Source: Bacteroidota bacterium
Lineage (GTDB): Bacteria > Bacteroidota > Bacteroidia > AKYH767-A > OLB10
DNA: 64,000 nt
Assembly (NCBI GenBank): GCA_016714005.1
Contig: JADJOA010000005.1
Span: forward strand, 35,027 to 99,026
Direction of reading: 5' to 3'
Part shown: piece by piece, positions 4,359 through 45,574 of the stretch
How positions within the stretch are numbered: position 1 is the first letter of the stretch
Layout of the letters: every line of letters starts with the position of its first letter
Program-made: the position numbers and the translations under genes
Notes under the pieces: model-generated
Told to the model about the DNA's origin: nothing
What the model saw: only the letters and a program-made list of their open reading frames with translations
Databases searched by the model: none

Positions 4359-4414
4359 AGGAAGATGGGCTGTGGTCTATGATCTTCTTATTTTGAACTT
4401 GACTTTTTCCTCTT

Positions 4415-5340: not shown

Positions 5341-5576
5341 TTCATTTGTAGTGTTAAGACCTTTAAACAACAATTAAACTTGAAACAATTGTGAACAAAA
5401 GTAAAAATAACCAAATCATATTTGACATTTCTCTTTTACTTACCCTTAAAAATCCTACTTTCGCGACCCATTTTGGAAAACAAGAGATAGGGGATAAAAG
5501 TCAAAGGTCAAAAGATTAGGTAGGCTCAAGACACAAAACTCTGAACTCAAGACACAAAACTCCGAACTCATTTCAC

Positions 5577-7387
5577 ATGAATAACATCAGAAACATTGCC
5601 ATCATTGCCCACGTTGACCACGGAAAAACTACGCTGGTTGACAAAATTCTTCATCAGTCTAAAGTATTCAGAGATAACCAGGAAACCGGTGAACTCATTT
5701 TAGATAATAACGACCTTGAGCGTGAGCGAGGCATTACCATTGTTGCTAAAAACGTTTCGGTAACATACAAAGGCACCAAGATTAATATTATTGATACACC
5801 CAGGACGCAGATTTTGGCGGTGAGGTTGAACGTGTGCTTACAATGGCTGATGGAGTTTTACTTTTGGTTGATGCCTTTGAAGGGCCCATGCCACAAACAC
5901 GTTTCGTTTTACAAAAAGCTATCTCACTTGGTTTAAAACCAATTGTGGTAGTTAATAAAGTTGATAAAGAAAATTGCAGACCTGATGAAGTGCATGAGCA
6001 GGTTTTTGATTTGATGTTTCATCTTGAGGCTACTGAAGAGCAGTTGGATTTTCCTACATTTTACGGTTCTTCAAAACATGGGTGGATGAGCGCTGATTGG
6101 AAAAATCAGACTACAGATATTACCGCATTGCTGGATGGAATTATAGAACACATTCCTGCTGCACCTTATAACGAGGGTACACCACAGTTGCAGATTACAT
6201 CGCTTGATTATTCAAGTTATGTTGGGCGTATAGCCATAGGCAGATTACACCGTGGTGAGTTAAAGGAAAACATGCCTGTTAGTTTGGTAAAGCGCGATGG
6301 CACTATTAAAAAGAACCGCATTAAAGAGCTTTTTGTCTTCGAGGGCTTGGGTAGAAAAAAAGTTGCAGAGGTAAAATCAGGAGATATATGCGCCATTAAC
6401 GGTTTGGAAGATTTTGAAATTGGTGATACTGTTGCCGATTTTGAAAACCCTGAAGGATTAAAACCTATTGCCGTTGACGAGCCTACCATGAGCATGTTGT
6501 TTACCATTAACAACTCTCCGTTTTTTGGTAAGGAAGGTAAGTTTGTAACATCACGCCATTTGCGCGACAGATTATATAAAGAGACAGAAAAGAATCTTGC
6601 ATTGCGTGTTGAAGAAACGGATTCGCCCGATGCATATTTGGTTTATGGCAGGGGCATTTTGCATTTGTCTATTTTGATAGAAACAATGCGCAGAGAAGGA
6701 TATGAGCTACAGGTAGGTCAGCCGCAGGTTATTATTAAAGAGATAGATGGAATGAAGCATGAACCGGTAGAAAATTTAACAGTTGATGTACCCGGTGATG
6801 TTGCTGGTAAAGTAATTGAATTGGTTACTATGCGCAAAGGAGAGCTTTTGGTAATGGAACCAAAAGGAGATTTGCAGCATTTAGAGTTTACTATACCTGC
6901 ACGTGGTATAATTGGTTTGCGCAACAATGTGCTTACCGCTACAGCGGGCGAAGCAATTATGGCGCACCGTTTTAAGGCCTATGAAGCATGGAAAGGCTCC
7001 ATACCCGGGCGTATTGCCGGTGTGTTAATTGCAAAAGAGGCGGGTACTGCCACCGCTTATTCTATTGACAAGTTACAAGAGCGCGGAGCATTTTTTATTG
7101 ACCCGGGTGATGTTATTTACGGAGGGCAACTTATTGGCGAACATATACGCCCTACTGATTTAATTGTAAACCCCTGCGAAGCAAAAAAACTTTCTAACGT
7201 GCGCGCCACAGGCAGTGATGATGCTGCGCGCATTACACCCAAAAGAAATTTTTCCTTGGAAGAAGCCATGGAATACATTGGCAACGATGAGTATTTGGAG
7301 GTAACACCCAAAGCCCTCCGTATGCGCAAAATACACTTAGACGAAAACGTGCGCAAGCGCATGGAGCGTAAGTTGGAGAACGCTTAA
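5577..7387 (+). CDS. typA: Translational GTPase TypA/BipA, with apparent frameshift near 5806
   Basis: N-term '[22 protein letters not shown]...[11 protein letters not shown]...INIIDTP' then frame changes where '[13 protein letters not shown]' is expected (sequence 'cccaggacgcagattttggcggtgagg' reads DFGGEV in the other frame); remainder (5834-7387) matches TypA domains II-V. Confidence 0.85.
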
Positions 7388-7640
7388 AGGGAATTAGAAA
7401 TTATGAGTTATAAATTGCGCCAGCAACTCCAATCTGTGTGATAGCAAGTGTAAGAGCGAGAGGGGTTAGGGGGTGTGTTAAAACAATAGTTGCAAGGTAT
7501 TGTGCGTAAGCTCTGCTGACAGGTTTTGCTCAATTATAAAATGAAGTTTTTATTTCTTTTTTTTTCATTAATGGTTAAAACAGTTTTGTTTAATGAGTTG
7601 ATTAACTATTTAAGTTTGAAGTTCACTAATTAATTTGGTT

Positions 7641-7850
7641 ATGCTCCGTTTCTTCAACCTATTTACAGAAATAATTGGCTGGTTACAGATTGTTGCTTCT
7701 CCTTTTCTTGTAGGTATTGTAATTGGGGCTTTAATTTATTTACAAAATCCTTCTGAAACTCGTCTTATTTTCTCAACCATTATTGTATTAACAGGGTTAA
7801 TTACAGGAATTATTTTTGCAAATAGGTTTGGAGAAAAAAGGGACAATTAA
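7641..7850 (+). CDS. Small membrane protein (2 predicted TM helices), hypothetical
   Basis: ORF with two hydrophobic segments (IIGWLQIVASPFLVGIVIGALIYL; FSTIIVLTGLITGIIFA). No homology recognised. Confidence 0.25.
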   Translation: MLRFFNLFTEIIGWLQIVASPFLVGIVIGALIYLQNPSETRLIFSTIIVLTGLITGIIFANRFGEKRDN

Positions 7851-8103
7851 TTTTTTATCTCGCTTAAGTGCAACTCCTGAGCTGGATAATGAAGAGGAGT
7901 CAGAGAAAACTAAAAATTCTTCAGGATCATCAATGAGCCATTAAGGGTAGTGTAGTTAATTTTCTGTGCAACTCTGTATCTCCAAGTCTCTGTGTTGCTT
8001 TTACTACAACTTAGCCCGATGGCTATCAGACATTAAGGACACTGGGTTTAACTGATAGACCATATGGTAATAGTGTAAAGTACTATCTCAGCAATTTGTA
8101 AAT

Positions 8104-9236
8104 TTGCATTCATTCTCTACAACCATGCTTACATCAGAAACAGTTACAGACACCACCCTCCAGCAAATTGCCGATAAAGTTTACGCCTCTAAAAGAATTA
8201 CGCCCGAAGAAGGCATTTATTTATACCAACATGCCGAGCTGGGTTTTGCTGGTGAACTTGCCAATTTCATAAGAGAAAAAAAGAACGGCAACAACACGTA
8301 CTTCAATCGTAACTATCATATTGAGCCCACCAACGTTTGTATTTTTTCTTGCAAGTTTTGCAGCTACAGCCAGGAGTATAAACATAAAGAGGAAGGATGG
8401 GAGTTAAGCAAGCAGCAAATAATGGATAAGGTGTTGAGCTATACTGATGATGCTGTTACCGAAGTGCACATAGTTGGTGGTGTTCATCCTAAAATGGACA
8501 TAAATTATTTTGCTGATGTATTACGCGAAATAAAAAAGGTTAGACCTAACCTGCACATCAAAGGCTTTACGGCTGTTGAGTTGGATTACATGATTCGTAA
8601 AGCAAAAATGGAGATAAAGAAGGTTTGCAATTTTTAAAGATGCCGGACTTGATTCTATACCCGGTGGTGGTGCCGAAATTTTTGGCGAAACCATCCATAA
8701 ACAAGTTTGTGCTGATAAATGCACCGGTGAGAATGGCTTTTTATACACCAAACTGCGCACAGTATTGGTTTAAAAGTAATGCCACTATGTTGTACGGACA
8801 TATAGAAAATTTTGCGCATCGTATTGACCACATGAACCGGCTGCGTTTGTTGCAGGATAAAACCGGAGGCTTCAATACTTTTATTCCGCTTAAATTTAGA
8901 AACAAGGATAATGACATGAGCCATGTTGCGGAAAGTTCGGTGATTGAAGATTTGCGTAACTATGCCATTGCAAGAATATTTATGGACAACTTTGATCACA
9001 TAAAAGCATACTGGCCCATGATAGGCAGACAAACTGCCCAACTTTCGCAAACCTTTGGTTTGGATGATTTGGACGGAACCATAGATGACTCAACAAAAAT
9101 TTACAGTATGGCAGGTGCCGAAGAACAAACACCTTCTTTAACAACAAACGAGTTAATTGATTTGATAAAGTCGGTTGGAAAAAACCCTGTTGAAAGAGAT
9201 ACTTTGTATGGTGTGATAAAAGATTATAAAAGCTAG
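8104..9236 (+). CDS. Radical-SAM menaquinone (futalosine pathway) enzyme, MqnC/MqnE family, with >=2 apparent frameshifts (~8628, ~8750)
   Basis: CxxxCxxC radical-SAM motif (CIFSCKFCSY), 'VHIVGGVHP' and 'SNATMLYGHIENFAHRIDHMNRLRLLQDKTGGFNTFIPL' typical of MqnC/MqnE. Between the two supplied ORFs the conserved 'DAGLDSIPGGGAEIF...CADK' and 'IHQTAHSIGLK' segments are readable in the other two frames; one shift lies in an A4/A5 homopolymer (ggtttaaaagtaat). Confidence 0.65.
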
Positions 9237-9385
9237 AATTCAAAGCAATTAAGTACGAAGAACAATTGTAAATCATAAAGTCTTTTGCCAAAAAGTGTTA
9301 TTTGAAAATCTCTGAATCTTCAGCCGAATAAGTAATCTTATATTAGTTAATAATATTTAAAAATCCTGATAAACCTTCAGATGCT

Positions 9386-9766
9386 ATGAAAAATCGTATA
9401 GATTATTGTAATGCGGCAATAAGAGAGTTTTCTGATTTGATTTTTGATGAGTTTAATAATGTTTATTTTTTTTCGGTTGGTCCAGAGTACGGAATTGAAC
9501 TTAGGTCAAAAAGCTTAAAAAAGGAAATTAGAATTACATTTTCATACTATGTAAATAATAGCAACTGGATGATTGAGATTTACAACCATAAATCTTTATT
9601 TCCTTTTAACAAAAAAGCAATTAACATTGTATTGAATGAGAGGTATGAGAAAGACGAAGACTTCGTAAAAATTCCTAAGATAATTGACGACAATAATATT
9701 TCTACCGTATTTGGTATGCTATCAGACTTCTTAGTTGATAATGTTAGGATATTAGAAAAACCTTAA
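9386..9766 (+). CDS. Hypothetical protein (orphan, AT-rich)
   Basis: 126-aa ORF in a visibly AT-richer segment (~9240-9800) between two housekeeping genes; no motif recognised. Confidence 0.3.
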   Translation: MKNRIDYCNAAIREFSDLIFDEFNNVYFFSVGPEYGIELRSKSLKKEIRITFSYYVNNSNWMIEIYNHKSLFPFNKKAINIVLNERYEKDEDFVKIPKIIDDNNISTVFGMLSDFLVDNVRILEKP

Positions 9767-9809
9767 AAATCAGGCTATAGTTTTTTCATTCAAAGCATGC
9801 TTCTAGGCC

Positions 9810-11177
9810 TTACATCAACGCCTTTGCAATATCATGCTTGGTAATGATGTAAGTTTTATCCTGTTTAAAATCCTTAATCATTACCGCTTTGTTTTTTTCA
9901 GAAATCATTTTTGATAACGCGCCCACCGAAGTAGTTGCATCTACAAACAAAAATGCTTCTTCCATTATTGTTTCTATGGGTTTGTGTTTTACTTCTTTAC
10001 CGCTTAGCAAGGATTGCAAAATTCTATCTTCACTCACCGAGCCAACAATCCTGCTGCCGTTTGTTACAGGCATTTGCGAAAAATTATTTGCAGTCATAAT
10101 TGAATATGCCTCTGCAATGGTTTTGTTTTGAGCTATCGTAAGCAGCTCAATGTTCTTTCTTGATTCAACCAAATCAAGCGCTGTCATTCCTTTTGCATCT
10201 AAATAGCCTTTGGCAAGCATCCACTCATCATTAAATATTTTGGCAAGGTAGCGCGAACCGTGGTCATGAAAAATAACAACCACTACATCTGTTGGTTTTA
10301 GTTTATCTTTAAGCTGATGCAATCCTGCAATAGCGCTGCCTGCACTGTTACCAACCCATATACCTTCTTTGCGTACAATATTACGCGTCATAACAGCAGC
10401 ATCTTTATCGGTAACTTTTTCAAAATGATCTATCACTTTAAAATCGTAATTCTCAGGAATAAAATCTTCGCCAATGCCTTCGGTTACGTAAGGATAAATT
10501 TCATTCTTATCCATTTTACCTGTTTCATGAAATGTTTTTAATACTGAACCATAGGTATCAATTCCCCATACTTTAATGTTCGGATTTTTTTCTTTCAAAA
10601 ATTTTCCTGTCCCAATAATGGTTCCGCCCGTACCTGCACCAACCAAAAGATGTGTAATTTTTCCATCGGTCTGCTCCCAAATTTCAGGTCCTGTTTGCTC
10701 ATAATGTGCTGGCGGTTACTTAAATTATCATACTGGTTTGCTTTCCACGAATTAGGAATTTCTTTTACCAATCTAGATGAAACAGAATAATAAGAACGTG
10801 GGTCTTCAGGATCAACATTGGTAGGACAAACAATTACATCGGCACCAAAAGCCTTAAGCGCATCTACTTTTTCTTTAGATTGTTTATCGGTAGTGGTAAA
10901 AATACATTTATACCCTTTTATAATGGCAGCAATAGCTAGTCCCATTCCGGTGTTACCGCTGGTTGCCTTCAATAATAGTTCCACCCGGTTTTAATGCTCC
11001 CGTTTTTTCGGCATCCTCAATCATCTTTAGCGCCATACGGTCTTTAATAGAGTTACCCGGATTAAACGTTTCAACCTTGGCAAGAACCGTGGCAGAAATA
11101 CCTTCCACAACTTTATTTAATTTAACCAAAGGAGTGTTGCCAATTGCGTCTAATATATTGTTGCAAATTTTTTTCAT
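9810..11177 (-). CDS. Cystathionine beta-synthase-like protein (PLP-dependent CysK/CBS fold + C-terminal CBS-domain pair), split by 2 apparent frameshifts
   Basis: Three co-linear minus-strand ORFs: N-term '[11 protein letters not shown]...[23 protein letters not shown]' (PLP lysine motif), middle '[45 protein letters not shown]', C-term with cysteine synthase core plus two CBS-type modules. Confidence 0.65.
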
Positions 11178-11296
11178 TAAAGTATTAATAAATATTTGGG
11201 AGGCGAAGATAAAAAATGAATTCGCAAAAACTTTAGAGTAACTATTTTAGGTTTCATCAATAGTTTTATGACTTTAGCCGATAAAATTTAAAGCAA

Positions 11297-11758
11297 ATGT
11301 TAATGAAAAAGAAACACGTATTTGAGAAATTGGCGCATAGGGCAACAGAGTTTAGCGGATCAACTTTAGCCTTTATGCTAGCATTAGTTACAATATTAAT
11401 TTGGCTTATTACCGGACCGTATTTTAAGTATAGCGATACCTGGCAGTTGGTAATTAATACAGGCACCACCATTGTTACGTTTTTAATGGTATTTTTAATA
11501 CAGCGAATGCAAAACAAAGATTCTCAGGCAATACATCTTAAATTAAATGAATTGGTGGCTGCATTAGACGGACCAAGCAACAGACTTATAGATGTAGAGG
11601 AAATTTCAGAGGAAGAATTGAAAATTTTAAGTAGCTATTACCAGAAACTTGCTGAAATGGCAAAGAAAGAAAAAAAACTTTCAGTATCTCATTCAATTGA
11701 AGAAGCAATGGAACTACACGAAGAAAAGTATTCGAGAACGAAGCAAAAAAGCAAGTAA
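11297..11758 (+). CDS. Low-affinity iron permease family (small membrane protein)
   Basis: Pattern 'FEKLAHRATEFSGSTLAFMLALVTILIWLITGPYFKYSDTWQLVINTGTTIVTFLMVFLIQRMQNKDSQAIHLKLNELV' matches my recollection of bacterial low-affinity iron permease family (PF04120) members; two TM helices then charged C-terminal tail. Confidence 0.5.
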   Translation: MLMKKKHVFEKLAHRATEFSGSTLAFMLALVTILIWLITGPYFKYSDTWQLVINTGTTIVTFLMVFLIQRMQNKDSQAIHLKLNELVAALDGPSNRLIDVEEISEEELKILSSYYQKLAEMAKKEKKLSVSHSIEEAMELHEEKYSRTKQKSK

Positions 11759-11777
11759 AATATTGAAAGTTTTTTAG

Positions 11778-12817
11778 TTACTTAAAATAGAAGTCGCCCG
11801 GAATAATTCCTGCTAAAAAAGTATTGAGTTGAGTTCCTGTTGCATCGTATCGGTAAATTTTTCCACGTTGTACGTAATCAATCGCATCAGAAACATAAAT
11901 TTCATTTGATGCTGGATTAATACCAAGCCCGTAAAAGTTTTTGGTGCCGTGAGCAATAAATGGAGCAGGAGGCAGGCTTAATGCAGTAATAGACATCCTA
12001 TATAAATCGTTGTTTAAATAGTATAAAGTATCATTACCACTGTTCATGTTCAATCGCCACGGAGTTTCTGTTGGGTTTGAAAAAGTGAAGGATAGTTCCA
12101 CAGAATTATTCAATGGATTAATTCTGTGCAATGAAGCATTAACAGCGTTACTTATACTTCCGCTACATAGAACCCAAAGTTTTCCGTTTTTATCTTCTAC
12201 AATTGAGTTAGAGCCAATTCCGATTGCGATGCTATCTGTTAATACGTCTGTTAACGTATTTATCACATAGAGTTTATCGCTCAAATAGTTTGTAACAAAA
12301 ACTTTTCCGTAAGACAACGCCATTTCTTCGGTTTTCCAGAGCATGAAATAGTACCTAATATGGCGTTGTTGCTTAAATCAATTATTGAAACGTAATCAGC
12401 ATATAAATCTGTTACATAAGCTTTACTATTGCTAACCGGTAAAAAATAACGTGGAGAAGTAAGACCGGTTATGGTTGCAACCGATGCAAAATTACTTTCG
12501 TTAACCACCTCAATTTTTCCGGAGTTGTTTACTACCATATAAATCTTCCCATTAAAACGATGCATGCTCTGACAAACATCTCCCAAGGGTCTGTTGTTGG
12601 CAGGCGCAAACAAATCCTGTACACAATAATTGGAAGAGGGATCGTAATAACTTACCTGCGCATTACCAAACTGAAAGTTTCCCTCATTGGTTATATACAC
12701 TCCGTTGGCAGCAGTGTTTATTGCTGAAATGGTAACATCTTCGGGTTTATCTTTTCTGCATGCTGTTATGATGCAGAATGCAATAAGCAATAACCATTTC
12801 TTAATCAGATATTGCAT
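11778..12817 (-). CDS. YncE-like beta-propeller lipoprotein (cell-surface protein), frameshift near 12300
   Basis: Signal peptide + lipobox-like 'ITACRK'; repeated 'xYV(T/S)(N/D)' beta-propeller-blade-like segments (YITNEGNF.., KAYVTDLYADYVSIIDL.., KVFVTNYLSDKLYVIN.., EIYVSDAIDY..); last gene of the riboswitch-controlled TonB receptor operon. Confidence 0.4.
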
Positions 12818-13801
12818 GTTGAACTATTAATTTTTTTACTGCATTATTTTTTTCATCACCTAATGAAATAACATACACCCCTGCAGGAATATCTCTTATA
12901 TCAATTCTGTTTTGATTTACTTTGTTAAGATCCATTTTTCTTACTTCTTTCCCTGTTAAATCTAAAATGGAAATTTTTATTCCGTAATGTATATTGTTTA
13001 GGCTTATGTAAATAAATTCTGAAGTTGGATTAGGGTAAACACTAAAATCTAAAGCGACCTTATTTTCATGTAAGTTAAGAGGAGATTCGTGAATAACGCC
13101 CACGGCATCCAAATCAAATCCACTTGATGGAAACGGAGTAGTCCACGGGTCATTTATTTTATTTCCGTGACTATCATAACGCACATACATGTCTTGAATA
13201 GAACCAACCACATCAATAACCTTAATATGAGTAACAGCGTTTGTATTTAATCCAGGTTGCCCTGTTAATTGGTTCAAGTCAATGGAGTGCCGTACAACGC
13301 TTCGTATTTTCCTGCAAGGTTGTCAATTTGTGTGGCATCAATACTACCAAAGCCGCCAACTTGTAAAGTGTCTTGCGTATAGGATGTAGAAGGAAACCGG
13401 AAATAATTTATGCCGTCAGAGCTAACTTCAACATAAGCAAGTTCAAGAAATGTGTTGCTGAAACTGTTTTCAAAAATGGCAAAATCCCAACCTGCACCAT
13501 CTGTAACAGGATTTGCAAATGTGAGAATAGCTTCACCACCATCACCTAAACTTACAGTGCCATTTGTTCCTGCTTGCCCCAGTGCCATTGAGCTATCACC
13601 TGAATTAGCAAAACCTAAACTCTGATTTGAAATATCCTGCAAACCTATTATAACGGTGCATCCTGTTGCCCATGCGACAAACGCAGAGCTATCTTTATAC
13701 ATAGCCGTAGTTCCGGGAATGCCGGCTGGAGGTGGAAACTGTGCGGAGGCAAATTGATACATCAGCAAAGCAATATTAAATACAGATATTTTTTTCATCA
13801 C
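12801..13801 (-). CDS. Secreted protein with T9SS C-terminal sorting domain (two ORFs, stop/start overlap at 13274-13277; probably one gene)
   Basis: Upstream ORF has signal peptide (MMKKISVFNIALLMYQFASAQ); downstream ORF ends with T9SS CTD (VYPNPTSEFIYISLNN...LDLTGKEV...IPAGVYVISL...KLIVQ). Confidence 0.45.
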
Positions 13802-14860
13802 TCTTTAACAAATAGTTTTTTTATGTCTTTTACACCATCGTTTACAACAACTGTATAAACACCGGCAGATAATTGTTGAACAGAAATTCTGGAATGACCA
13901 TTGTATATATTATTCATCATCATTTTTCTTCCTGTTACATCATAAACAGAAATTATGTTTGTTGTATTTCTTGATTTTTTATGATGTATATCAATAGTAA
14001 GTATTTCTTTTGCGGGATTAGGGTATAAGTGTATATTATCTGTAGTAATCTCGTCATTAATTGAAAGAGGGTTATCTGCAGTTGTAAAATTATCAATGCA
14101 AAAGAAGGAAGGTGTGTTCATTCCAAATGAACCCATATCGGTTGATGATAATGTCATTTGCAAACTGTCAACGTTTCCTAATGAAGTTAAGTCAACCCAC
14201 TGCCATGTTTTTTAAAATATAATCCTGGGCGTTGTTTACAAAGCGGTAATCTGCTAAATAAAATTCAACGCTGTCATTGGTCATAACTCCGCCAAACCAT
14301 TTTCTGATGGTTAATTTATACCAATCAGGATCATTACCTGTTATACCTCCAAACTTTTTTGAAAAGGCATCACCATCTCTCATGCTCAAAGCCGCAAAAG
14401 TTGTGTTGGTAATATAAAATCCATTTACGACTTTGCCCATAGCCGTAGCGTTTAAATTAATTATCGGGTTTAAATTTCCAACAGCATAATTATTGGAACC
14501 ATTAAACCCGGATGCTGTAATGGCGCTGTAATTGTTTATAAAACCTGCTGTAGTGCTGTCCTGCATATTGGAATATGCCCATCCGCTTGCCCAGTAAAAA
14601 AAAGTGGAATCATATACGTTTGGAAAAATGGCATTTCCATCAGTAAATGATACGCCACCGGGAGATGCTGCTCCATCCCAATAAGAGTTTGGTGAAAGGC
14701 TTAATGATTCAAAAGTGGAAACGGTTTGTGCATTGGCTGTTTTTAATACTGTTGTTGCAATAGCCGTGATGGAGATAAGTTGTAAAATTTTCTGCATGTG
14801 TAAATTATTTAGTTGTTGTTTTATTCGGATTATTAAAAGAAAAGGAAATTCCTGTTTCAA
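13798..14860 (-). CDS. Secreted protein (DUF4465-like N-terminal region) with T9SS C-terminal sorting domain, frameshift near 14170
   Basis: 14192-14860(-) has signal peptide then Gly/Asn-rich domain (my recollection: resembles DUF4465 proteins found in Bacteroidota heme/B12 uptake loci; not verified); 13798-14163(-) ends with T9SS CTD (LYPNPAKEILTIDI...VYDVTGRKM...LSAGVYTVVV...KLFVKE). Confidence 0.4.
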
Positions 14861-16729
14861 AATTTTGTAAAGGCATGGCTCTGTTTAAAAGCAATTGATA
14901 TTCCTTGTTCCATATATTGTTTATTTGAAAGTATGCCGATGCAGATGAGTTTTTCCGTTTTATTCTATAGGAAATATTTGCTGAACCTAAATCGTAAGGT
15001 GTTAAATACTGCGTGTTATCTGTGGAAGTATAGCGGTAGCCGGTATAGTTGTGCCTGTAAGAGATTGCCAATCGCTTAAACTCTATTGTAGCTTTTGCGA
15101 GTCCGCTATACATGGGGTATAAATTAATTGTTTGTTTAGCGCTTCGTCATTTTCGTAACGTGTTTTGTTGTTGGTTGACAAAACATAATTGGTGATAACG
15201 GCAATAGAGATTTTAGTTTTTCCATTATGCACAATAAGTTTGTTATTCGTTTCAATACCTCTGCTCCAAACACTGGCAATGTTTTGCGGACTCCAGTAAG
15301 TAATGCCGGGAAGCCATAAAATCCATTCAGACATATCCCTGTTAAACACAGTTGCTTCTGATGAAAAAGTAAAATGCTTTTTTGCAACATTTAATTTCAA
15401 TCCTGCTTCCTGTGCGTATCCGCTTTCTGAAAGTAAATCGGGATTGCCACCAGGATACCAGTATAAATCATTTAAAGCAGGTATTCGATAAACTCTTGTT
15501 ACAGATGCTTTTGCCAGCAGGTAATCTGTAATTTTATAATCAGCCCCTGCTGAAAATGTAAACGGGGCAAAGTTTTTTTCTTGTAATTCCTGACGTGCAG
15601 AAACGGAAGTATTTAACTTCTCATTAATTGAACGAAATGAGTACAGTAGAAATAGTGCCGTACGGTTTTGATTTTGCTGATGGTAATAGTTTGGAGTAAT
15701 TGCTGAAACATAAGTATTATTTACACCAGCATTTACTGAATGTGATTTAGATAGTTGAAATTTATCTTCAACTTCAATAATAAATTCTGAGTCATGGCTT
15801 GTTTCAGAATAATTGTAAGTGGCATCTTCATACTTTAATTTCTCATTAAAAAAGGCTGCTCTAATTGTTGTAAGATGTTTTCCGTGGTTGTTTTTATATG
15901 CAGATGAAAATCTGTAATTATTGTCAAACTGTTCTGACCGGTTAATTTCCTGCAGCATGGTTGGAGGTATTTCACGTGCTGTCTGCTGTGACCATAACAT
16001 CAGGTTTATTTCCTGGTTCTGATCAATCTTAAAATAATTTTCAGAAACCAGTCCATAGTTTTTAAGAGTTGCATTTGTTTGTTTTCGTTTTTCAGAACTA
16101 ATGTTTATCGCATAAATGTTGTTGTACTCAAAATTATTTTTTGCCGAGGCATTATAAATTTTTAAGACTGATACAAACCTTTTTTTGCTTAGCTCAATAT
16201 TCAATTGTTGCTTGTAGCTGTTAAAACTTCCTGCTGACAGATTGATTGTTGCTGTAACCCCTTTATCATACTTTGCATAATTGTTCAGGTGAATGGCACC
16301 TCCCACTGCGCCACTTCCCCATAATGCTGTAGAACTTCCAAACTGTAGAGAAACTGATTCACTTGCAGTAACAGGTACCAACGCTAAATCGGTTTGACCA
16401 TACATGGGGCTGTTAATGTTAAAACCGTTCCATAAAACTGCTGTGTGAGACGCATTGCCTCCTCTGAATGAAGTAGAAGCAAGAGAACCCATTCCATAAG
16501 ATTTAACAAATACAGGGCTTTCATCTGCCAATAAATCAGCAAGATTTTTATCAATGTATTTGCTGTAAATTATGCTGTCGAATGTGGTGATTTTGTTCCC
16601 GCAGAAAAACCTGCAAGCCTGTTGGATGTAACGGTTACTGTTTTGATATGTATAATAGAATCAGGTTGGATCTCTTGGCAAAACCGGGTTCGTGATTAAG
16701 CAATATGGCAAAAACCAAATTCATAATTA
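14805..16729 (-). CDS. TonB-dependent outer-membrane receptor (BtuB/HmuR-size, ~640 aa) with >=3 apparent frameshifts
   Basis: Signal peptide readable at ~16729-16660 (MKTCLRFIIMNLVFAILL), then in another frame 'EIQPDSIIHIKTVTVTSNRLAGFSAGTKS' (TonB box/plug start), then 15083-16531 'ADESPVFVKSYGMGSLASTSFRGGNASHTAVLWNGFNINSP' (plug) and beta-barrel body; 14805-15113 supplies C-terminal strands. Confidence 0.65.
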
Positions 16730-16747
16730 TAAATCTCAAGCAGGTTT

Positions 16748-17356
16748 TCATTGAGAATTATGCATGGTTAGTTTTAAGTGCAGAGATTCTTTTTGTGCAA
16801 GTTCAAATGTTCCGAACAAAACAGCGCAATAAAATAAATCTCCAAGCAATGTTCCTTTAATAAATGGTATACCTGCAGCGTAGCAGGAAACTAGTCCATT
16901 TAAATTTTGTGGATAGGAACCGTAGCAGGCAAAATTTGTAACAGCAAAAAATAAAATAGTAGAAATCAATGATGCAAATAGTACTCTTTGAATATTAACT
17001 TTCTTTAAAATAGAAAAAGATACAAATGTTATAAGCAGGTAGCTTCCGTATTGCCAGTAAAAGCCTGAGTAGAACCATGTAAAAGTCTTGTAGTGTTGGG
17101 CATAAATAACGTTATTGATAAACAAATCGCTAAGCCGGTAGCGGTTATAGGAATAATAAATACCTGCCATTTTTTGAAAATAAGCTGCGCCAAATATTCC
17201 TATTGCGGCCAAAGGAGAAAAGTTTGGCATATGCGTAATGATTCGGCTGAAGGCTGCCAGCACAATAAGTGAAGCAATGACGGTAAAGCGAAGATCAATT
17301 TTGTTGTGTTTCATTTGCTGAAATTGTTTTATAAAATGCAAAGCAGCAACGAACAA
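16748..17356 (-). CDS. Polytopic membrane protein, putative transporter component (first gene after the riboswitch)
   Basis: ~6 hydrophobic helices; positioned directly downstream of the predicted cobalamin riboswitch and upstream of the TonB receptor, so plausibly an inner-membrane uptake component. Family not identified with confidence. Confidence 0.3.
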   Translation of the reverse strand: MFVAALHFIKQFQQMKHNKIDLRFTVIASLIVLAAFSRIITHMPNFSPLAAIGIFGAAYFQKMAGIYYSYNRYRLSDLFINNVIYAQHYKTFTWFYSGFYWQYGSYLLITFVSFSILKKVNIQRVLFASLISTILFFAVTNFACYGSYPQNLNGLVSCYAAGIPFIKGTLLGDLFYCAVLFGTFELAQKESLHLKLTMHNSQ

Positions 17357-17419
17357 CTGTATAGCAAATTCAGGTTACTGAAAATGCTAAGTCAGTGCAT
17401 TACTTCTATTGCGGAAGTT

Positions 17420-17550
17420 CCGGCACTAAATGTTAAGGCAAGTATCTGGCTCTTCTTTTTAAAGAATTACAGTTGCGCAACAGCCCATGATTTTCACATG
17501 GTTCCTTTTTAATTGCAGCTTAATTCAGCCGCACACCTTGACAAACTTTT
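17420..17550 (-). ncRNA. Probable cobalamin (B12) riboswitch
   Basis: On minus strand: '...GGAACCATGTGAAAATCATGGGCTGTTGCGCAACTGTAATTC...(17 nt)...AGCCAGATACTTGCC'. Compare cobalamin riboswitch core 'GGGAA..GGTGAAA.TCC...CCCGCAACTGTAA' and B12-box 'AGYCAGGAGACCTGCC', in correct order and spacing, ~70 nt upstream of the first gene of an operon ending in a TonB-dependent receptor. Confidence 0.5.
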
Positions 17551-17678
17551 AAAGAACTGGTGCAAAGAAAAGGTTTTTTTTGGTTTTTAAGCACGACCTT
17601 CAAATTTGAAATCTTGAAAACAGGTATGGGTTTTAATCCTATTTTTGAGTAGCGTTAAGTTCCCTAAATGTTATTCAA

Positions 17679-18126
17679 ATGAAAATAGCACTCACCATGT
17701 TTTGCCTTGTAACAACAATCTTTATAAGCAGAGCTAATAGTTTGCCTGGAAATAATTTAGAAGATGACAAATTAAATAAGGAGTGTATGAACAGGGTAAT
17801 TGCTCTTGATGATTCTTTAGGTAAAATACGCAACCATGCATGTGAGAAGATTTCTTTGAGCCAGAGCATAAAGGACTATAGTGCCGGTATGAAAAATTTA
17901 GTTATAAAAATGCCCTGAATCTTTTAAAAAAGCTTTTGAGAGACACAGGCAAGCGTGGGCAAATATGCTTGTTGTTACAGATAAATATCCTGACTTGCGA
18001 GGTGAAATGCATGTACTTTTTAAGCAACTGGAAGAAGGCAAGGATGCTGAACTTTTTAAACCGCTTTTAAAAGCTATATGGGATACGTGGGCAGAGGTAG
18101 AAAAAGCAATAAAGGAGAATAAGTAA
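17679..18126 (+). CDS. Hypothetical secreted protein (~150 aa), frameshift near 17905
   Basis: Signal peptide (MKIALTMFCLVTTIFISRANS); after the stop at 17916 a co-linear ORF in another frame continues (PESFKKAFERHRQAWANMLVVTDKYPDLRGEMHVLFKQLEE...KENK). Confidence 0.3.
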
Positions 18127-18224
18127 GTACGGCTTACTTAAACTGATAGGGCTGTTAGTAATTATGATATACAGTTTGTAGTTCTTTTTTGTAAATTTAT
18201 TTTTCAATATGAAAAGTTACAATA

Positions 18225-18650
18225 ATGAAAACCGCAATTATTATTTTAATGCTTTTAGTTGTGCAGCCATGCTTTGCACAGGAAAGCAAACAGGACGTTA
18301 AAAAGTTTTGTCTTTACATGAAGTTGTCAGATAAAGCAACTTCATCAACTTTAAAAGTTACCGTTAAGAATGGAAGAAAAATAATAGCTGACAGAGATGG
18401 TTACAAAAAGGTAACGAGGATTAATAAAAAGTCGTTTACCAGGTTTAAGAATGAAATAATAAACAAAAGCGGATTTTATGATCTTGCAGCAAGCATACAG
18501 TGCAATGATTGTACTCCAACAAGAACTGTAACTTTAAGGGTGAAAACAAACAGAGGAAATAAAACTATTACAGTAAACAATCCTCATGAGACGAGTAAGA
18601 TCGTAGAGCAAATTATCAGTGATGTGGAAAATATGGTTGGGACCTTATAA
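18225..18650 (+). CDS. Hypothetical secreted protein (141 aa)
   Basis: Signal peptide (MKTAIIILMLLVVQPCFAQ); Lys-rich; followed by a strong terminator. Confidence 0.35.
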   Translation: MKTAIIILMLLVVQPCFAQESKQDVKKFCLYMKLSDKATSSTLKVTVKNGRKIIADRDGYKKVTRINKKSFTRFKNEIINKSGFYDLAASIQCNDCTPTRTVTLRVKTNRGNKTITVNNPHETSKIVEQIISDVENMVGTL

Positions 18651-18682
18651 AGAAATAGATTCAGCTTGAGACATTAACAAAA

Positions 18683-18712
18683 AACGCTACCATAACTGGT
18701 AGCGTTTTTTGT
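18683..18712. terminator. Rho-independent terminator (bidirectional)
   Basis: aaaaaCGCTACCAtaacTGGTAGCGtttttt: 9-bp GC-containing stem, 4-nt loop, flanked by A-run and T-run; lies between convergent genes. Confidence 0.7.
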
Positions 18713-18740
18713 TGAACAGAAATATATTATCTCACAATGT

Positions 18741-20567
18741 TTATTTTTTGGTTATGTAATTATCGCCATATTTTATCACGCACATATATATGCCGTTGTC
18801 AAAAGCAGATGTGTTTATTTTAATGCTGCCTTTGCCACTCAGGTAACCTACAGTGGCAGCAGCAACCTGCTGCCCAGTGCTGTTAAAAATAGTGTAACTT
18901 ACATTTTGTTTAGCTACAGCATCATAACTTAGGTTGGTATAGTGCGATGCTGGGTTTGGGTATAAACTGAGAAACAAATTTTCTGCGGTTTCATTTATAC
19001 CTGTTACTTTTTCGATGTAGGCATTAATCATTACATCTTCAATTTCGCGGTAACGGTAGCTTGCCCAATTACCAATATTACTAGCCTGCCCTAAAATTTC
19101 GTAAGTGCGGTTACTCACTGGTGGAGACTGGTTTTGACCAAGAGTAACACCATCACCTCCCATTCCCCAACCAACATAAAAACTGCCTGAGCTAAGTAAT
19201 ATTGGTGTTGTAAGTACTACATCATTCCACGTACCAATTACAACTGAAGCAGGATCAACAAATACAGAGTCAAGTACATTATTAGGTGCGCCATTAGGCC
19301 CGGTATCATCTAATATCATTGCATAAAATCCAACAGCGTTTGGATCGTCAACAATAAACATTCTTACTTTGGTAATTATGCAAGGAGTGAACGGAGGAAC
19401 AAAATGCATAGCAGCGCCACCGGCACCACCTGTCCAGTTAAGTCCACCCAAGCCAGCATCTACTCCGTTATCAAAACTAAGGAGTATAGAAAGTTGTGTG
19501 GTGTCAACTGCTTGTAATTCGAGCGTTTTATCATTGTTAGAAGGCGTGGCATCACCAGCAAGTAGAGTAGAGTTAATATGGCGATATGTTCCCGGAATTG
19601 TTGGTGTCCAGGTATCAGGAAAAGTAACTAACTGTGATGGCTGGTGCAAGACCGGTCACGGCTATTGTATCACGCACCTGAATTGCATTAGCCGCATTTA
19701 CAAAACGCGAGTAAGAATTAAAACTTGCAATTGGTTCGTTGCCTGTGTTGCGTACTTCAACTACACTCGTGTAGCTACCGCCATTAACAGATCGAAAAAG
19801 CCCGCCATTCTCATCATTGTTGCAGTAGGTTGTTGATGCATCATTTATAGCAAGTGATGTAGTAGCCGGATATAAAAATTTAACTGTTGAGCCAATGGTT
19901 GGGTAAATTTCAAACAATACTTGCAGGCCTATGTTGCCTGAGTTGTTTTCAATACCTGTACTTACAAAACTTGCGGCTGATTGGCTTGCCCCAACTTGAT
20001 TTTGATATTGATAAAGTATAGAGCTATCGTTAGTTGACAATACAACTTGAAAAGTATTTAAACCTGTATAACCTGGTGCTGTCGAACTCCAGAAAGGAAC
20101 ATCTTTCCATGTAACAACAAGCGTGTCGTTACCAGAACTGAACCAGTATTTACAAGATGCTCCAGCCACGGGCTGACTTGCATTGTCAACAAATGTTAAG
20201 TCCGTTGCCATAGCTGCTAAATAATTGTTTGGATTACCGGGCACTGGTATTGGAGGAAAGGATGAGCCATAGGGCTGCTGCTAAAACCAATATATCCGTT
20301 TGAGCCAATCCAAAAGGATGCAGGCTGATACCAGTAATAAGTAAATGGAGCTTGCATAAAAAAAGGTCCGCGAATGTTATCATCTGCCAGTCCGGTAACG
20401 GTAACGGCAGTAGGCATACTGTCTAATTCTATCCAGTTGTAGCCTTGTCCAAGAGGATCGTTGCTGTTACGCCATATATAGCCATAGGCATCGGGTCCGC
20501 CAGAGGTTTGAGCTGTTGCGTTTTGTATGCAAGCAGCCATTAGTAAAAGTGTAAAGAGTTTTTTCAT
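18741..20567 (-). CDS. Secreted protein (~600 aa) with T9SS C-terminal sorting domain, split into 3 ORFs by apparent frameshifts
   Basis: 20217-20567(-) signal peptide (MKKLFTLLLMAACIQNATAQ); 18741-19649(-) ends in T9SS CTD (LYPNPASHYTNLSYD...IFNSTGQQV...FDNGIYMCVIKYGD); fragments are co-linear and adjacent. Confidence 0.5.
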
Positions 20568-20864
20568 GATAATGTTGTTTTAAGTGAGATTGATTTTGGT
20601 TTTCCAAAAGAAAGGAATTATGATGAAAAATAAAAGGAATAATGATTTTTGTTTATATTAATGAGTATATTATTTAAGATTATTCGTTACTCAAACTTTT
20701 AGTTTATTCTTCAGGCTCACACTAATTAAGACAATTTTTTTAATTTTTTAAAAAATTCTAACAATATTAAATAAAAGAACTTTTACTTATTTTTAGCATC
20801 GCAATAAGTATTAACTCAAATCTAAAAAACAACATCTCTTTTTTGATGAAAAGATTATTGAAGT

Positions 20865-23216
20865 TTGCATTTTTTCTCATTCTTTTCTTTCCTCTTTAAA
20901 ATGTTTGCCACCCACATAGTGGGTGGAGTGGTTTATTATAAAAAGCTAACCGGCAACACGTATGAAATAAAATTAATCGTTTACCGCGATTGTTTCTATG
21001 GTGTACCTCCGTTTGATGCACCTGCTTCCATAGGTTTTTTTGATGGAGCCACCAATAATCTTTTTACGGAAGTACTTCTTTCCACTTCCGATTCCGTAAA
21101 TGTGCCCAACTTTGTAAATAATGATTGCTTTACAGCACCGGTAAATATTTGCTACCGCGAAGCACGATATACTTTTAACGTTACGCTTCCACCAAATCCC
21201 AATGGATACATTATAGCTTATCAACGCTGCTGCCGAAATAATAGCATTTCAAATATTGTAAACCCTCAATCAGCTGGTGCTACTTATTTAGCTACTATTC
21301 CATCATCAGCATTTACCACAAATAATTCTAATCCGGTTTATACAAATTTTCCACCAACCTTTATCTGCCTTGGCTTTCCTCTTGTGTTTGATCATTCTGC
21401 TATTGATGCTGATGGAGACTCGTTAGTGTATGAACTCTGCACTCCTTTAGATGGTGCCTCTTTTTCCGACCCTATTCCTCAGCCTCCTTATAATCCTCCA
21501 TACTCACCAGTTACTTTTATTTCCCCATATTCAACATCTAATATGTTAAATGCAATAGGAGGAGGCGCACCTTTGTCTATTAACCCACAAACAGGAGTAT
21601 TAACTGCCACCCCAACAACCATAGGTCAGTTTGTAGTAGGGGTATGTGTTAGAGAGTATAGAGGGAATATTTTTCTTGGAAGTACCAGAAGGGATTTTCA
21701 ATTTAATGTAATTCCGTGTCCTTCCTTAATTGTAGCTGATTTCAGTGCGCAGCAGTCGAATATCATTACCTTATGTGGTTCATTTGATGTTGATTTTATA
21801 AATCAGAGTTTTGGGGCAGGCAGTTATCTTTGGAATTTTGGCGACCCAACAACTCTTGGGGATACTTCTAATGCAACAAATCCATCTTACACTTATCCCG
21901 ATACCGGTGTGTATAACGTTACGCTTATTGCCTATTCTTCCCTCAATCCAAATTGTGCCGATACGGCTTTCGCTACCGTTACCATAAAACCTGAGTTAAC
22001 TACGGATTTTACTTTTACCACTACTCCTTGTACATACAATGTTCAGTTCAATGATTTTATCACCAACAACACGGGTACATTAACTAGTGTTAGCTATAAT
22101 TTTGGTGATAATACCTCCGGTAATACCTCCGATCCATTACACACTTATGGTGGTCCCGGAACTTACACCGTTACTCTTATTACAACTTCTTCTGATGGCT
22201 GTTTAGACACCATTCAAAAACAATTAACAATAGTACCTATAATAAATGCGGGTACAGGCTCTAGGTCTGTTGTATGTAATACCGATTGCAATGGCGAGGC
22301 TTGGGCAACACCTGCAAACGGAACACCTCCTTATAATTACCTATGGAGTACCAGTGCCACTACTGACAGTATTTTTAATTTATGCTCAGGAACCTATACC
22401 GTTACCGTTTCCGATTTTAATAGTTGCTCAACTACACGTACAGTTATCGTTAATCAGCCAACACCACTTTCTTCGTCAGCATCAGCTACTGATGATTACT
22501 GCGGAGCAATTTGCATAGGCACTGCTACGGGAATTGCAACTGGTGCAACTCCTCCTTACACATTTACATGGAGCAATGGGCAAACAGGCAGCTACATTAA
22601 AAATCTTTGCCAGGGAACATATACAGTTACCATTACCGATGCATTGGGCTGCACCACACAAACACAAACTGTTAATGTAGGCTTACAAAATATTTTTCCT
22701 TCACTTTCAGTGTCTATCAGTGATGATACTATTTATGTAGGCGAATCGGTTCAACTGTTTGCTATTACCAATGGTGCTACATATACATGGACTCCATCAA
22801 ATATTTTAAATTCCGCAACAATTTATAATCCAATTGCTACACCCACCCAACCTGTTACTTTTATAGTAACAATTAATGATTCACTTGGCTGCCCAGTTAC
22901 AGATTCCATCAGCATTCACGTAAAAGAAGTTATTTGTTACGAGCCTGCTATTTTTATTCCCAATGCTTTTACACCAAACGATGATGCCAACAATGATATA
23001 TTCAGGGTAAGAGGTGACCAAATTCGCGAATTACTGGTGCGTGTGTATGACCGCTGGGGAGAAAAAGTTTTTGAAACCACTACTCCGGGCAAAGGGTGGG
23101 ATGGAACCTATAAAGGAAAAAAAGTAAACCCGGGTGTGTTTGTTTATTATGTTGAGGCGGTTTGTTTTAATAACGAAAATTTTTTTAAGAAGGGAAATGT
23201 TACAGTAATACGATGA
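20865..23216 (+). CDS. SprB-like cell-surface protein with PKD domains and gliding-motility-associated (T9SS type B) C-terminal domain
   Basis: PKD-like segments (YNFGDNTSGNTSDPLHTYGGPGTYTVTLI); C-terminus 'CYEPAIFIPNAFTPNDDANNDIFRVRGDQIRELLVRVYDRWGEKVFETTTPGKGWDGTYKGKKVNPGVFVYYVEAVCFNNE' = type-B CTD; followed directly by a PorP/SprF gene. Confidence 0.7.
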   Translation: MHFFSFFSFLFKMFATHIVGGVVYYKKLTGNTYEIKLIVYRDCFYGVPPFDAPASIGFFDGATNNLFTEVLLSTSDSVNVPNFVNNDCFTAPVNICYREARYTFNVTLPPNPNGYIIAYQRCCRNNSISNIVNPQSAGATYLATIPSSAFTTNNSNPVYTNFPPTFICLGFPLVFDHSAIDADGDSLVYELCTPLDGASFSDPIPQPPYNPPYSPVTFISPYSTSNMLNAIGGGAPLSINPQTGVLTATPTTIGQFVVGVCVREYRGNIFLGSTRRDFQFNVIPCPSLIVADFSAQQSNIITLCGSFDVDFINQSFGAGSYLWNFGDPTTLGDTSNATNPSYTYPDTGVYNVTLIAYSSLNPNCADTAFATVTIKPELTTDFTFTTTPCTYNVQFNDFITNNTGTLTSVSYNFGDNTSGNTSDPLHTYGGPGTYTVTLITTSSDGCLDTIQKQLTIVPIINAGTGSRSVVCNTDCNGEAWATPANGTPPYNYLWSTSATTDSIFNLCSGTYTVTVSDFNSCSTTRTVIVNQPTPLSSSASATDDYCGAICIGTATGIATGATPPYTFTWSNGQTGSYIKNLCQGTYTVTITDALGCTTQTQTVNVGLQNIFPSLSVSISDDTIYVGESVQLFAITNGATYTWTPSNILNSATIYNPIATPTQPVTFIVTINDSLGCPVTDSISIHVKEVICYEPAIFIPNAFTPNDDANNDIFRVRGDQIRELLVRVYDRWGEKVFETTTPGKGWDGTYKGKKVNPGVFVYYVEAVCFNNENFFKKGNVTVIR

Positions 23217-24242
23217 AGTTGATTTCAAAAAAAATATCAAAACTTTTATTTGCTGCTGCATGTTGCATGATTTGCATCAATGTTGTTGCACAAGACATTC
23301 ATTTCTCTCAGTTTTATTGTGCACCACTAGTTATAAACCCTGCCAAAACAGGAAATTTTAATGGTGACTATCGTTTCACCGGTATTCACCGCAACCAGTG
23401 GAAATCGGTAACTGTTCCCTATAAAACTTTTTCAGGTTCGTTTGATATGCGCATTAACGAAGCAGAAGAAAGCAAAGGTTTCTTAAGCGCAGGAATTGTT
23501 TTTAATAATGATAAAGCCGGTGATAGCGACTTTGGTTTAACTGAAGGTGCTTTATCTGTTGCGTATTCTTTCTATATTGATAAAGACAAAAAGAATATGA
23601 TTACCGCAGCTCTGCAACCGGGCTTTGCACAAAAAAGTATAAATTACGGCAACCTTACTTTCGATAGTCAATACAATGGTGATGTGTTTGATCCCAGCGC
23701 TCCCACAAATGAACCGTTTAATAAATTAAGCATTACTTATTTTGATATAAACACAGGTTTGCATTTCCGCCATGTAAACGAAGATAAATTTGCCCTCAGT
23801 AGTGGAATAGGTATGCAGCATCTCAACAAACCGGAGCAAAATTTTTTCAGCGATAAGGTTACATTGTTTCCAAGATATGCATTTGACCTAAACCTGGGTA
23901 TTAAAGCAAGTGAGCGTATTTTTTGTTCTTCCATCTTTACTTTATCAAATGCAGGGGAAATTTACTGAGCTAAACGGAGGTGGTAACGTAAAATTAGCGC
24001 TTAGTAAAAACGAAAAAAATGAAATGGCAATTTATCTTGGTGGTTTTTTCCGTACCAAAGATGCAGGCATTGCCCGCGTTGGTTTAGATTACAACAACCT
24101 TCATTTGGGCTTTGCTTATGATTTTAACACCAGCGATCTAGACAGGGCAAGTAATGGAAAAGGTGGTTACGAAATGGCCCTGATTTATATTTTCAAAAAA
24201 GTAAAACCGCTTAAAATTAATCCTCCATGCCCGGTTTATTAA
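23213..24242 (+). CDS. porP: Type IX secretion system membrane protein PorP/SprF family, frameshift near 23930
   Basis: N-term 'AQDIHFSQFYCAPLVINPAKTGNFNGDYRFTGIHRNQWKSV' is the PorP/SprF signature; ATGA overlap with upstream type-B CTD gene; second ORF 23910-24242 is co-linear in another frame. Confidence 0.65.
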
Positions 24243-24248
24243 ACAAAT

Positions 24249-41334: not shown

Positions 41335-41523
41335 GATACGTTTTGTATTAATAGTTATTTAACTGCACAAATATGGAGCTGATACTATTATCCGTCAATA
41401 GTTGATATGAATGATTTGTGGATGGTAACATGCTTTGTTTAGTCATTGATATGAATGATTTGTTGTTACTTAACCTTACAGGGGTTGCGTGAAGGGGCGC
41501 AACGACCTGTCAGGTTAGGTTGA

Positions 41524-45202: not shown

Positions 45203-45253
45203 ATTTGTTTGATATTTAGTTATGGTGTTATTTGTTGTTAGTGTTGCTTTTGC

Positions 45254-45338
45254 TTAATCCCTTAATTACCTCAATCCCTTAATTACCTCAATCACTCAAT
45301 TACCTCAATCCCTCAATTGCCTCAATCCCCCAATTACC
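45254..45338. repeat. 17-nt tandem repeat (ccttaattacctcaatc) x ~4.7 located ~50 nt upstream of paralog A start codon
   Basis: Direct reading: ccttaattacctcaatc / ccttaattacctcaatc / actcaattacctcaatc / cctcaattgcctcaatc / ccccaattacc. Confidence 0.85.
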
Positions 45339-45535
45339 TTTTCTTTTAACGCCACAAAGATGCCGTGCTAAACCGCGCCCGTCAATCGTTCATTCCAATG
45401 AATTGGGTGTGGTGATGGGTGTGGTTTTGTAGTTGATATCAATGAGGGCAGGCGCACAAGCGTTTGTAAAAGCACCATGCAGGCAGGTCCCCTTTAGGGA
45501 TTTGGGGGTTAAACGCAAAGCAGACTTACCGGCAA

Positions 45536-45574
45536 ACCTGCAAACCCGTGAGGTTTTATAAACCTCGCAGGTTG
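45536..45574. repeat. Imperfect palindrome (aaacccgtgaggttt-tat-aaacctcgcaggttt), copy 1 of 2
   Basis: 12-bp stem with one mismatch and one G-U pair; same motif recurs at 45750-45786. Confidence 0.6.

Follow-up and report, generated by a model that had tools for sequence, protein, structure and literature searches.

Few microbes produce vitamin B12 but many depend on it, and in oceans, lakes and soils its main consumers include Flavobacteriia, Chitinophagia and related groups. How such environmental bacteria capture it has so far been inferred from gut Bacteroides, in which every extracellular helper is a lipoprotein. In particular, the Btu loci 1–3 of Bacteroides thetaiotaomicron combine a cobalamin riboswitch with the TonB-dependent receptor BtuB and with BtuG, BtuH and BtuJ, accessory proteins that are all surface lipoproteins, and structures are available for the BtuB2–BtuG2 (8BMX) and BtuB3–BtuG3 (8P97) complexes (2026 review PMC13616437). 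DUF4465 proteins, the domain family of BtuJ, are high-affinity B12 binders with a beta-jellyroll fold, binding having been shown for eight divergent members (PMC13398666) and also in bioRxiv 10.1101/2025.07.01.662609; their co-location with TonB receptors and PF16819 propellers has likewise been reported (PMC13398666). In BtuH2 (7BIZ), the C-terminal globular domain binds B12 and was described as having no structural homologs (PMC8941943), and 8BLW_B is BtuG1 with a fused BtuH domain. As for inner-membrane transport, BtuM of Thiobacillus denitrificans (PDB 8OVV, PMC6072759) is a solitary cobalamin transporter resembling the S-component of energy-coupling factor (ECF) systems, a fold to which we liken that of DUF6580 proteins. 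Here, we analyzed a 64-kb stretch of DNA from a Bacteroidota bacterium (GenBank contig JADJOA010000005.1, positions 35,027 to 99,026; hereafter, the window), which probably carries a functional B12 (corrinoid) scavenging operon of the BtuB–BtuG type, one that relies on the type IX secretion system (T9SS) in place of lipidation to route its two extracellular accessory binders.

Pfam and NCBIfam profiles placed five tightly packed minus-strand genes downstream of a riboswitch, in the order DUF6580, btuB, DUF4465-CTD (CTD, C-terminal sorting domain), CTD2 and btuG:

17420..17555, minus strand: cobalamin riboswitch aptamer (RF00174, 54.6 bits, E 7.9e-11, model positions 1-189, i.e., full coverage).
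17315..17419, minus strand: leader running from the aptamer to the start codon of DUF6580, inspected with a pattern scan and a minimum-free-energy fold.
16758..17314, minus strand: DUF6580, a small six-helix membrane protein, 186 aa when intact; indels at ~17170 (-2), ~17137 (-1) and ~16790 (-1) in the window.
14805..16724, minus strand: btuB, predicted TonB-dependent corrinoid receptor, 640 aa when intact; single-base deletions at ~16680, ~16591 and ~15114 in the window.
13798..14797, minus strand: BtuJ-like protein, 332 aa, with a Sec signal peptide, a DUF4465 beta-jellyroll and a T9SS type A CTD (~13801-14028).
12801..13798, minus strand: putative BtuH-like protein CTD2, 332 aa, with a Sec signal peptide, a beta-sandwich domain of ~220 aa and a T9SS type A CTD (~12822-13040).
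11778..12817, minus strand: btuG, seven-bladed propeller lipoprotein with DUF5074, 346 aa; single-base deletion at ~12332 in the window.

A first-pass annotation of the window had listed all of these elements, each of which was recovered in its place, but it had overlooked frame breaks in all five genes. None of the five is intact as an open reading frame (ORF), the ORF map is fragmented, and Pfam profiles run across ORF boundaries (e.g., DUF5074 is divided between two successive ORFs, with positions 1-136 matched in the first and 147-337 in the second). Three-frame analysis located one frame switch each in DUF4465-CTD, CTD2 and btuG and three in the receptor gene, all of them in short homopolymer runs; that of DUF4465-CTD is one extra A in an A-run at ~14208, and that of CTD2 a single-base deletion at ~13281. 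Functional inference was therefore based on the proteins of an intact copy, contig L001 from run SRR17347209, in place of the frame-broken window copies. This contig was found by querying with the frame-corrected DUF4465 protein, which matched an intact 332-aa protein (P0001) with 99% identity. Aligning the window to it revealed 10 indels inside the operon, three of which (-2, -1, -1) lie in the DUF6580 ORF despite its intact appearance in the window. The intact products in L001 comprise 186 (DUF6580), 640 (BtuB), 332 (DUF4465-CTD), 332 (CTD2) and 346 aa (BtuG), and the gaps between their genes of 33, 7, -1 and -17 nt are consistent with one operon.

With regard to control, RF00174 was the sole Rfam family above its gathering score (31.5 bits) in the whole window. 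The match lies at 17420-17555, 105 nt upstream of DUF6580 as the first gene of the operon and no more than 5 bases from where the first-pass annotation had placed a probable cobalamin riboswitch; its score, well above the gathering score, supports the proposed riboswitch control of the operon. The interval 17420..17555 showed zero differences between the window and L001. The aptamer is a short form of 136 nt, with 7 nt standing where the model has 62 consensus positions for the P6 peripheral extension. Class II cobalamin riboswitches, which differ in ligand selectivity, characteristically lack this extension, and its absence here suggests a class-II-like ligand selectivity of the window riboswitch. 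Folding of the leader by minimum free energy gave no clear terminator or sequestering helix, a result that is not decisive. Terminator-like sites across the operon occurred at chance level in a pattern scan, and a sigma-70 promoter scan of the operon, whose consensus was not designed for Bacteroidota, returned 16 promoter-like sites compared with 24 in shuffles.

The receptor carries a Plug domain (PF07715) and a TonB barrel (PF00593), and its best matches among solved structures were BtuB3 (8P97, 6.8e-64) and BtuB2 (8BMX_C, 1e-62) of B. thetaiotaomicron, followed by BtuB1 (1e-17) and E. coli BtuB (1e-8). What had been annotated at first as a BtuB/HmuR-sized receptor is thus, on top matches that are all BtuB, a BtuB of the BtuG-partnered type of Bacteroides. 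The largest window fragment missed the BtuB equivalogs (TIGR01779, 62.6 bits with a cut-off of 599.7; PRK10641, 48.7 with a cut-off of 836), cut-offs presumably tuned to proteins closely related to BtuB of E. coli. Of the 33 substitutions that separate the window from L001, 13 fall within 385 nt of btuB (15523-15907, approximately residues 273-401), where local divergence is ~3.4% vs. ~0.1% elsewhere and several amino acids are changed; this cluster may mark a recombined tract or a portion of the barrel that evolves rapidly.

The propeller protein (PF16819, DUF5074, 97.2 bits) lacks a CTD and has a lipobox, LLLIAFCIITAC (ITAC, then RKDKPED). It aligned over its full length with BtuG2 (8BMX_D, 6.8e-67, residues 11-346) and BtuG3 (8P97_B, 4e-66), and this end-to-end match identifies its gene as btuG, the obligate lid of BtuB. 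Hence, the earlier description of a YncE-like lipoprotein was right as to lipidation, while the contrast that it drew with BtuG does not apply, the protein being BtuG itself. In 45 of 48 BtuG orthologs without CTD, a rule-based scan recognized a lipobox that leads into C-[RK]-[KS]-D-x-P-[ED], and since the BtuG of locus L052 looks like a missed lipobox, approximately 46 of the 48 are lipoproteins. Taken together, homology to solved and characterized proteins shows the identities of BtuB, BtuG and the DUF4465 domain, and valid T9SS and lipoprotein signals are present.

Turning to the two CTD proteins, the signal peptide of the DUF4465 protein ends in KTANAQ/T and that of CTD2 in FASAQ/F, with the N-domain of the latter following directly; neither has a lipobox cysteine. 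Signal peptides were called by inspection and the rule-based scan. The DUF4465 protein matched PF14717 with 96 bits, and the CTDs scored 55.0 (DUF4465 protein) and 57.4 bits (CTD2) for PF18962 and 46.5 and 48.0 bits, respectively, for TIGR04183, that is, approximately twice the cut-offs of 27 and 23 bits. Among solved structures, the DUF4465 protein was closest to BtuJ1 (9FCT, 6e-23) and D5EK51 (9HMU, 3.9e-22), with 9I2L (1.9e-5) following. Most of its 120 best DUF4465-CTD matches were ~500-580 aa long, not 332 aa.

Domain architectures were counted over 81 loci (L001 to L081). The CTD2 N-domain (CTD2N) was followed by a CTD in 76 cases and DUF4465 in 36, DUF4465-CTD2N-CTD fusions were found twice, and BtuG occurred 48 times without and, as a BtuG-like protein, twice with a CTD. 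Throughout these loci, both cargo classes had plain signal peptides ending in AQ, BtuG had a lipobox, and all 38 DUF4465 proteins found beside CTD2 carried a T9SS CTD. The two CTD-bearing BtuG-like propellers belong to Mesonia ostreae (L055) and Aequorivita capsosiphonis (L078), both of which keep a lipoprotein BtuG next to BtuB. In these two loci (~6-11 kb in the locus), the order is BtuB > BtuG > BtuG-CTD > CTD2 with the riboswitch upstream, and BtuG-CTD has a plain signal peptide. The cargo domains are also shuffled, as DUF4465 x2 - CTD, CTD2N x2 - CTD and DUF4465-CTD2N-CTD (P0002, P0013, P0124, P0172, P0193), and such fusions and tandem duplications tie the two domains together.

These signals indicate that T9SS sorting would replace lipidation for the accessory BtuJ-like and BtuH-like binders only, the BtuB–BtuG core being lipid-anchored. 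As to the first-pass claim that the surface partners are anchored through the T9SS instead of by lipidation, the two CTD proteins do carry a T9SS signal in place of a lipobox, with surface anchoring as one of their possible fates, and the claim fails for BtuG, with its lipobox in 45 of 48 orthologs; replacement for all partners was rejected on the same grounds. Other T9SS genes of the window and L001 encode a PorP/SprF family member, an SprB-like protein with a type B CTD (CHU_C) and further type A cargo, which makes it very probable that the source organism has a T9SS; the core genes sprA, gldKLMN and porU/V were absent from the window. The SprB/PKD protein with its type B CTD adjoins the PorP/SprF gene at 20901-24242, and 32891-35791 encodes a DUF7619 protein of 966 aa that carries a type A CTD.

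The N-domain of CTD2 had no Pfam family even at E values up to 1. Against all PDB sequences, 7BIZ and 8BLW included, phmmer and a 42-sequence profile matched the CTD only (E up to 10), and by the criterion of PMC8941943 no sequence homology to BtuH1, BtuH2 or BtuG1 was detected. The family is nonetheless large: 7989 of 8000 scored candidates had E <= 0.001, a count obtained with a whole-protein query that may in part reflect the CTD alone, and two domain-specific peptide patterns found N-domain relatives in at least 588 species-representative genomes. Mean column identity in the 42-sequence alignment was 61%, and an AlphaFold model built from it reached a pLDDT of 78, with ~90 in the domain core. 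The structures 7BIZ and 8BLW_B have only the BtuH domain in common. At the level of fold, together with genomic context, CTD2 is a plausible BtuH-like corrinoid binder.

DUF6580, the first gene of the operon, is a candidate inner-membrane corrinoid transporter with a fold like that of BtuM and ECF S-components; in common with BtuM, it is a solitary protein with the S-component fold. Two cysteines, at positions 131 and 145, are near-invariant in the family. Pfam gave no further families at E up to 1, and an exact-sequence look-up of the window protein found no record, because of the three indels in the window copy. No earlier description of DUF6580 emerged from a literature search of incomplete coverage.

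Across genomes, CTD2 lay on the same strand as, and within 7 kb of, BtuB and/or BtuG in 52 of the 81 loci, the commonest order being BtuB > DUF4465-CTD > CTD2 > BtuG, as in the window. Each of the 17 syntenic loci examined is headed by an RF00174 match (68-124 bits), so that the gene set recurs together with riboswitches in many genomes. In one otherwise syntenic operon (L082), a transposase gene of the IS200 type (Y1_Tnp, 4111-4557) stands between CTD2 and btuG. Several solitary CTD2 genes are found in a different cluster, DUF6580 - Cys_rich_CWC/DUF5522 - 4HBT thioesterase - CTD2 - CobT - CobS - CobC-type phosphatase, which pairs the secreted BtuH-like protein with cytoplasmic genes for attachment of the cobamide lower ligand:

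L021, 8698-13315: CTD2-CobT-CobS-CobC cluster.
L083, 4267-8884: CTD2-CobT-CobS-CobC cluster.
L085, 6001-10613: CTD2-CobT-CobS-CobC cluster.

In L084 and L085, moreover, metE lies behind a strong cobalamin riboswitch of 105-106 bits and is followed by DUF6580. These other cobamide contexts tie DUF6580 and CTD2 each to cobamide biology independently of the operon.

We infer the following route for corrinoids in this organism. When intracellular cobalamin is low, the riboswitch, which by its family would be of the OFF type, would be unliganded and the five genes expressed. The DUF4465 and BtuH-like proteins would cross the inner membrane by means of their Sec signal peptides and be exported by the T9SS across the outer membrane via their type A CTDs, domains that cleavage normally removes; as T9SS biology suggests, they would then be attached to the surface or released. 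Outside the cell, corrinoid would be bound by the DUF4465 protein, as homology to proven binders predicts, and by the BtuH-like domain, as its fold and context suggest. It would be handed to the lipoprotein BtuG capping BtuB, by analogy with the homologous BtuB2–BtuG2 and BtuB3–BtuG3 complexes, and imported by BtuB using TonB. The operon has no btuFCD genes, and DUF6580 might carry the corrinoid across the inner membrane, as its fold and its linkage to riboswitches in other genomes suggest.

Several findings weigh against this reading. The window riboswitch is short and scores 54.6 bits, compared with 179-311 nt and 68-124 bits in related loci; the pattern scan of the leader (17315..17419) revealed no intrinsic terminator; and RF00174 was found at none of the four non-syntenic loci tested. 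CTD2 stands without a nearby BtuB or BtuG in 24 of the 81 loci, and DUF6580 is present in only five of them. Furthermore, the cysteine in loop 3 that is the hallmark of BtuM is missing from DUF6580, whose loop between helices 3 and 4 (residues ~72-85, YAQYYPxFTWFYEGF) is cysteine-free. Lastly, the window DUF4465 protein has Phe (NTTF, NTPSF) at both positions of the ligand tyrosines Y146 and Y245 of BtuJ1, of which Y245 (HI-loop, NTPxY) is reported to be kept in 97% of homologs and Y146 (DE-loop) is likewise a conserved B12 ligand, so that its affinity or specificity for B12 may differ. Among the 120 closest CTD-type homologs (P0001-P0120), Phe prevails at the HI-loop position (F 97 vs. Y 39, i.e., ~70% of domains) and Tyr at the DE position (Y 144 vs. 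F 31). Phe in place of the ligand tyrosine may favor hand-off over sequestration.

The frame breaks themselves raise the question of whether the operon is truly pseudogenized, with real frameshifts, a decaying genome and loss of B12 uptake via this locus. All five genes are indeed broken in the window sequence as given, and homopolymer slippage is also a natural mode of mutation; however, the operon is not singled out by the indels. Over the 19.7 kb shared with L001 (window 5086-24779, 99.66% identity), 33 substitutions and 29 indels were counted, the latter nearly all in homopolymers and affecting intergenic DNA as well as 10 of the 12 mapped genes, among them those for BipA, a radical-SAM enzyme and cystathionine beta-synthase. 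Relative to L001, bases are missing from the window at 23 sites and added at 6; this bias, like the indel-to-substitution ratio of ~1:1, is what under-called homopolymers typically produce, as opposed to evolution, and every gene is intact in L001. Given this ratio, the deletion bias, the homopolymer context and the fact that housekeeping genes are not spared, the frame breaks are almost certainly homopolymer-length errors of the assembly and not a loss of the operon. Genuine pseudogenization is thus very unlikely, and decay confined to the operon was rejected, the indels being spread window-wide. Even less probable, to the point of being scarcely tenable, is that the operon imports heme or a siderophore instead of corrinoids, heme having been the alternative ligand of the first-pass annotation. 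TonB-dependent receptors of similar size do import such ligands, and a gene for a low-affinity iron permease adjoins the operon on the opposite strand, yet that gene is convergent and outside the operon, the leader carries a cobalamin riboswitch, the four best solved relatives of the receptor are all BtuB, and its partners are BtuG and DUF4465/BtuJ homologs.

Corrinoid uptake being the preferred reading, the remaining alternatives concern the cargo. CTD2 might bind no corrinoid and accompany B12 loci as a general-purpose surface domain of the jellyroll or CBM32-like kind, for instance one that binds glycans or serves as an adhesin or scaffold. This is unlikely, and both CTD proteins are plausible corrinoid binders (DUF4465 as a BtuJ homolog, CTD2 by fold and context), neither of them resembling the peptidases or adhesins considered in the first-pass annotation. 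Type A CTD cargo of the T9SS can be released as well as attached, and it is quite conceivable that both proteins are soluble "corrinophores", comparable to hemophores, and not surface-anchored. The proteins have no lipobox, and in B. thetaiotaomicron BtuJ works at a distance from the cell, on extracellular vesicles (PMC13616437), but binders held at the cell surface would pass corrinoid on to BtuG more efficiently. As the sequence does not discriminate between them, release and T9SS-mediated surface attachment are equally possible.

Extending these observations to other genomes, we tentatively propose, as a generalization that may well not hold in full, that in environmental T9SS-bearing Bacteroidota, T9SS-secreted and possibly soluble BtuJ-like and BtuH-like binders, mostly with Phe at the ligand position, feed a lipoprotein BtuG–BtuB pair; that DUF6580 replaces BtuFCD; and that CTD2N is a new and very large branch of the BtuH fold, which also serves CobT-CobS-CobC clusters for salvage or remodeling. 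If so, B12 capture would depend on T9SS function in hundreds of environmental species, shed B12-binding proteins might shape the availability of B12 for neighbors, and the claim that non-lipoprotein DUF4465 proteins are periplasmic would need revisiting. The analysis also assigns testable functions to two large unannotated families, i.e., inner-membrane corrinoid transport for DUF6580 and BtuH-like binding for the CTD2 N-domain. As to the window itself, ~1.5 homopolymer indels per kb make pseudogene calls elsewhere in it unsafe. At 39000-50000, GC content is 43-50% vs. ~36% in the first 30 kb, and ORFs lie in series on one strand and partly overlap (PKD_6, LVIVD repeats, several without a Pfam match); this region may represent giant surface-protein gene(s) broken by indel noise, or acquired DNA.

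Type IX cargo that captures a tetrapyrrole for a TonB-dependent importer has a precedent in Porphyromonas gingivalis, in which T9SS-exported heme- and hemoglobin-binding domains feed a TonB-dependent receptor. The logic is alike, but families and ligand differ and no riboswitch is involved, so that this is an analogy only. The DUF4465 proteins of PMC13398666, including F2I9N3 of Fluviicola taffensis, share the Pfam domain of the window BtuJ-like protein; there, they were described as lipoproteins (>70%) or as having "periplasmic targeting signals", with the T9SS unmentioned, in contrast to the CTD carried by every DUF4465 protein beside CTD2. We found no description of T9SS sorting of B12 binders in the BtuJ, BtuH and DUF4465 literature or by targeted searches, in which coverage of subscription journals was incomplete, in keeping with the "undescribed variant" of the first-pass annotation. 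With regard to BtuM, DUF6580 shows 14% identity and no sequence-level match; judged from the loop sequence, the invariant cobalt-ligating Cys80 (T. denitrificans numbering, loop 3) is absent; and BtuM occurs mostly in proteobacteria, DUF6580 in Bacteroidota.

The closest counterparts remain the loci of B. thetaiotaomicron, with which the window operon shares the riboswitch, the BtuB subfamily (1e-62 to 7e-64 vs. BtuB2/BtuB3), a lipoprotein BtuG (7e-67) and a DUF4465/BtuJ protein beside a BtuH-like one, just as BtuH2 (BT1956) and BtuJ2 (BT1957) are neighbors in locus 2. In contrast to that species, the BtuJ-like and BtuH-like proteins of the window have a Sec signal peptide and a type A CTD instead of a lipobox, the BtuH-like protein has no N-terminal Ig/PKD domains, and both conserved B12-binding tyrosines of BtuJ are Phe. 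Moreover, btuG is the last gene and does not directly follow btuB, and btuFCD is missing, with DUF6580 as the first gene instead. Overall, the Btu core of this operon is known, while the T9SS targeting of the accessory binders, the Ig-less BtuH-like protein and a BtuM-like DUF6580 in place of BtuFCD appear to be new.

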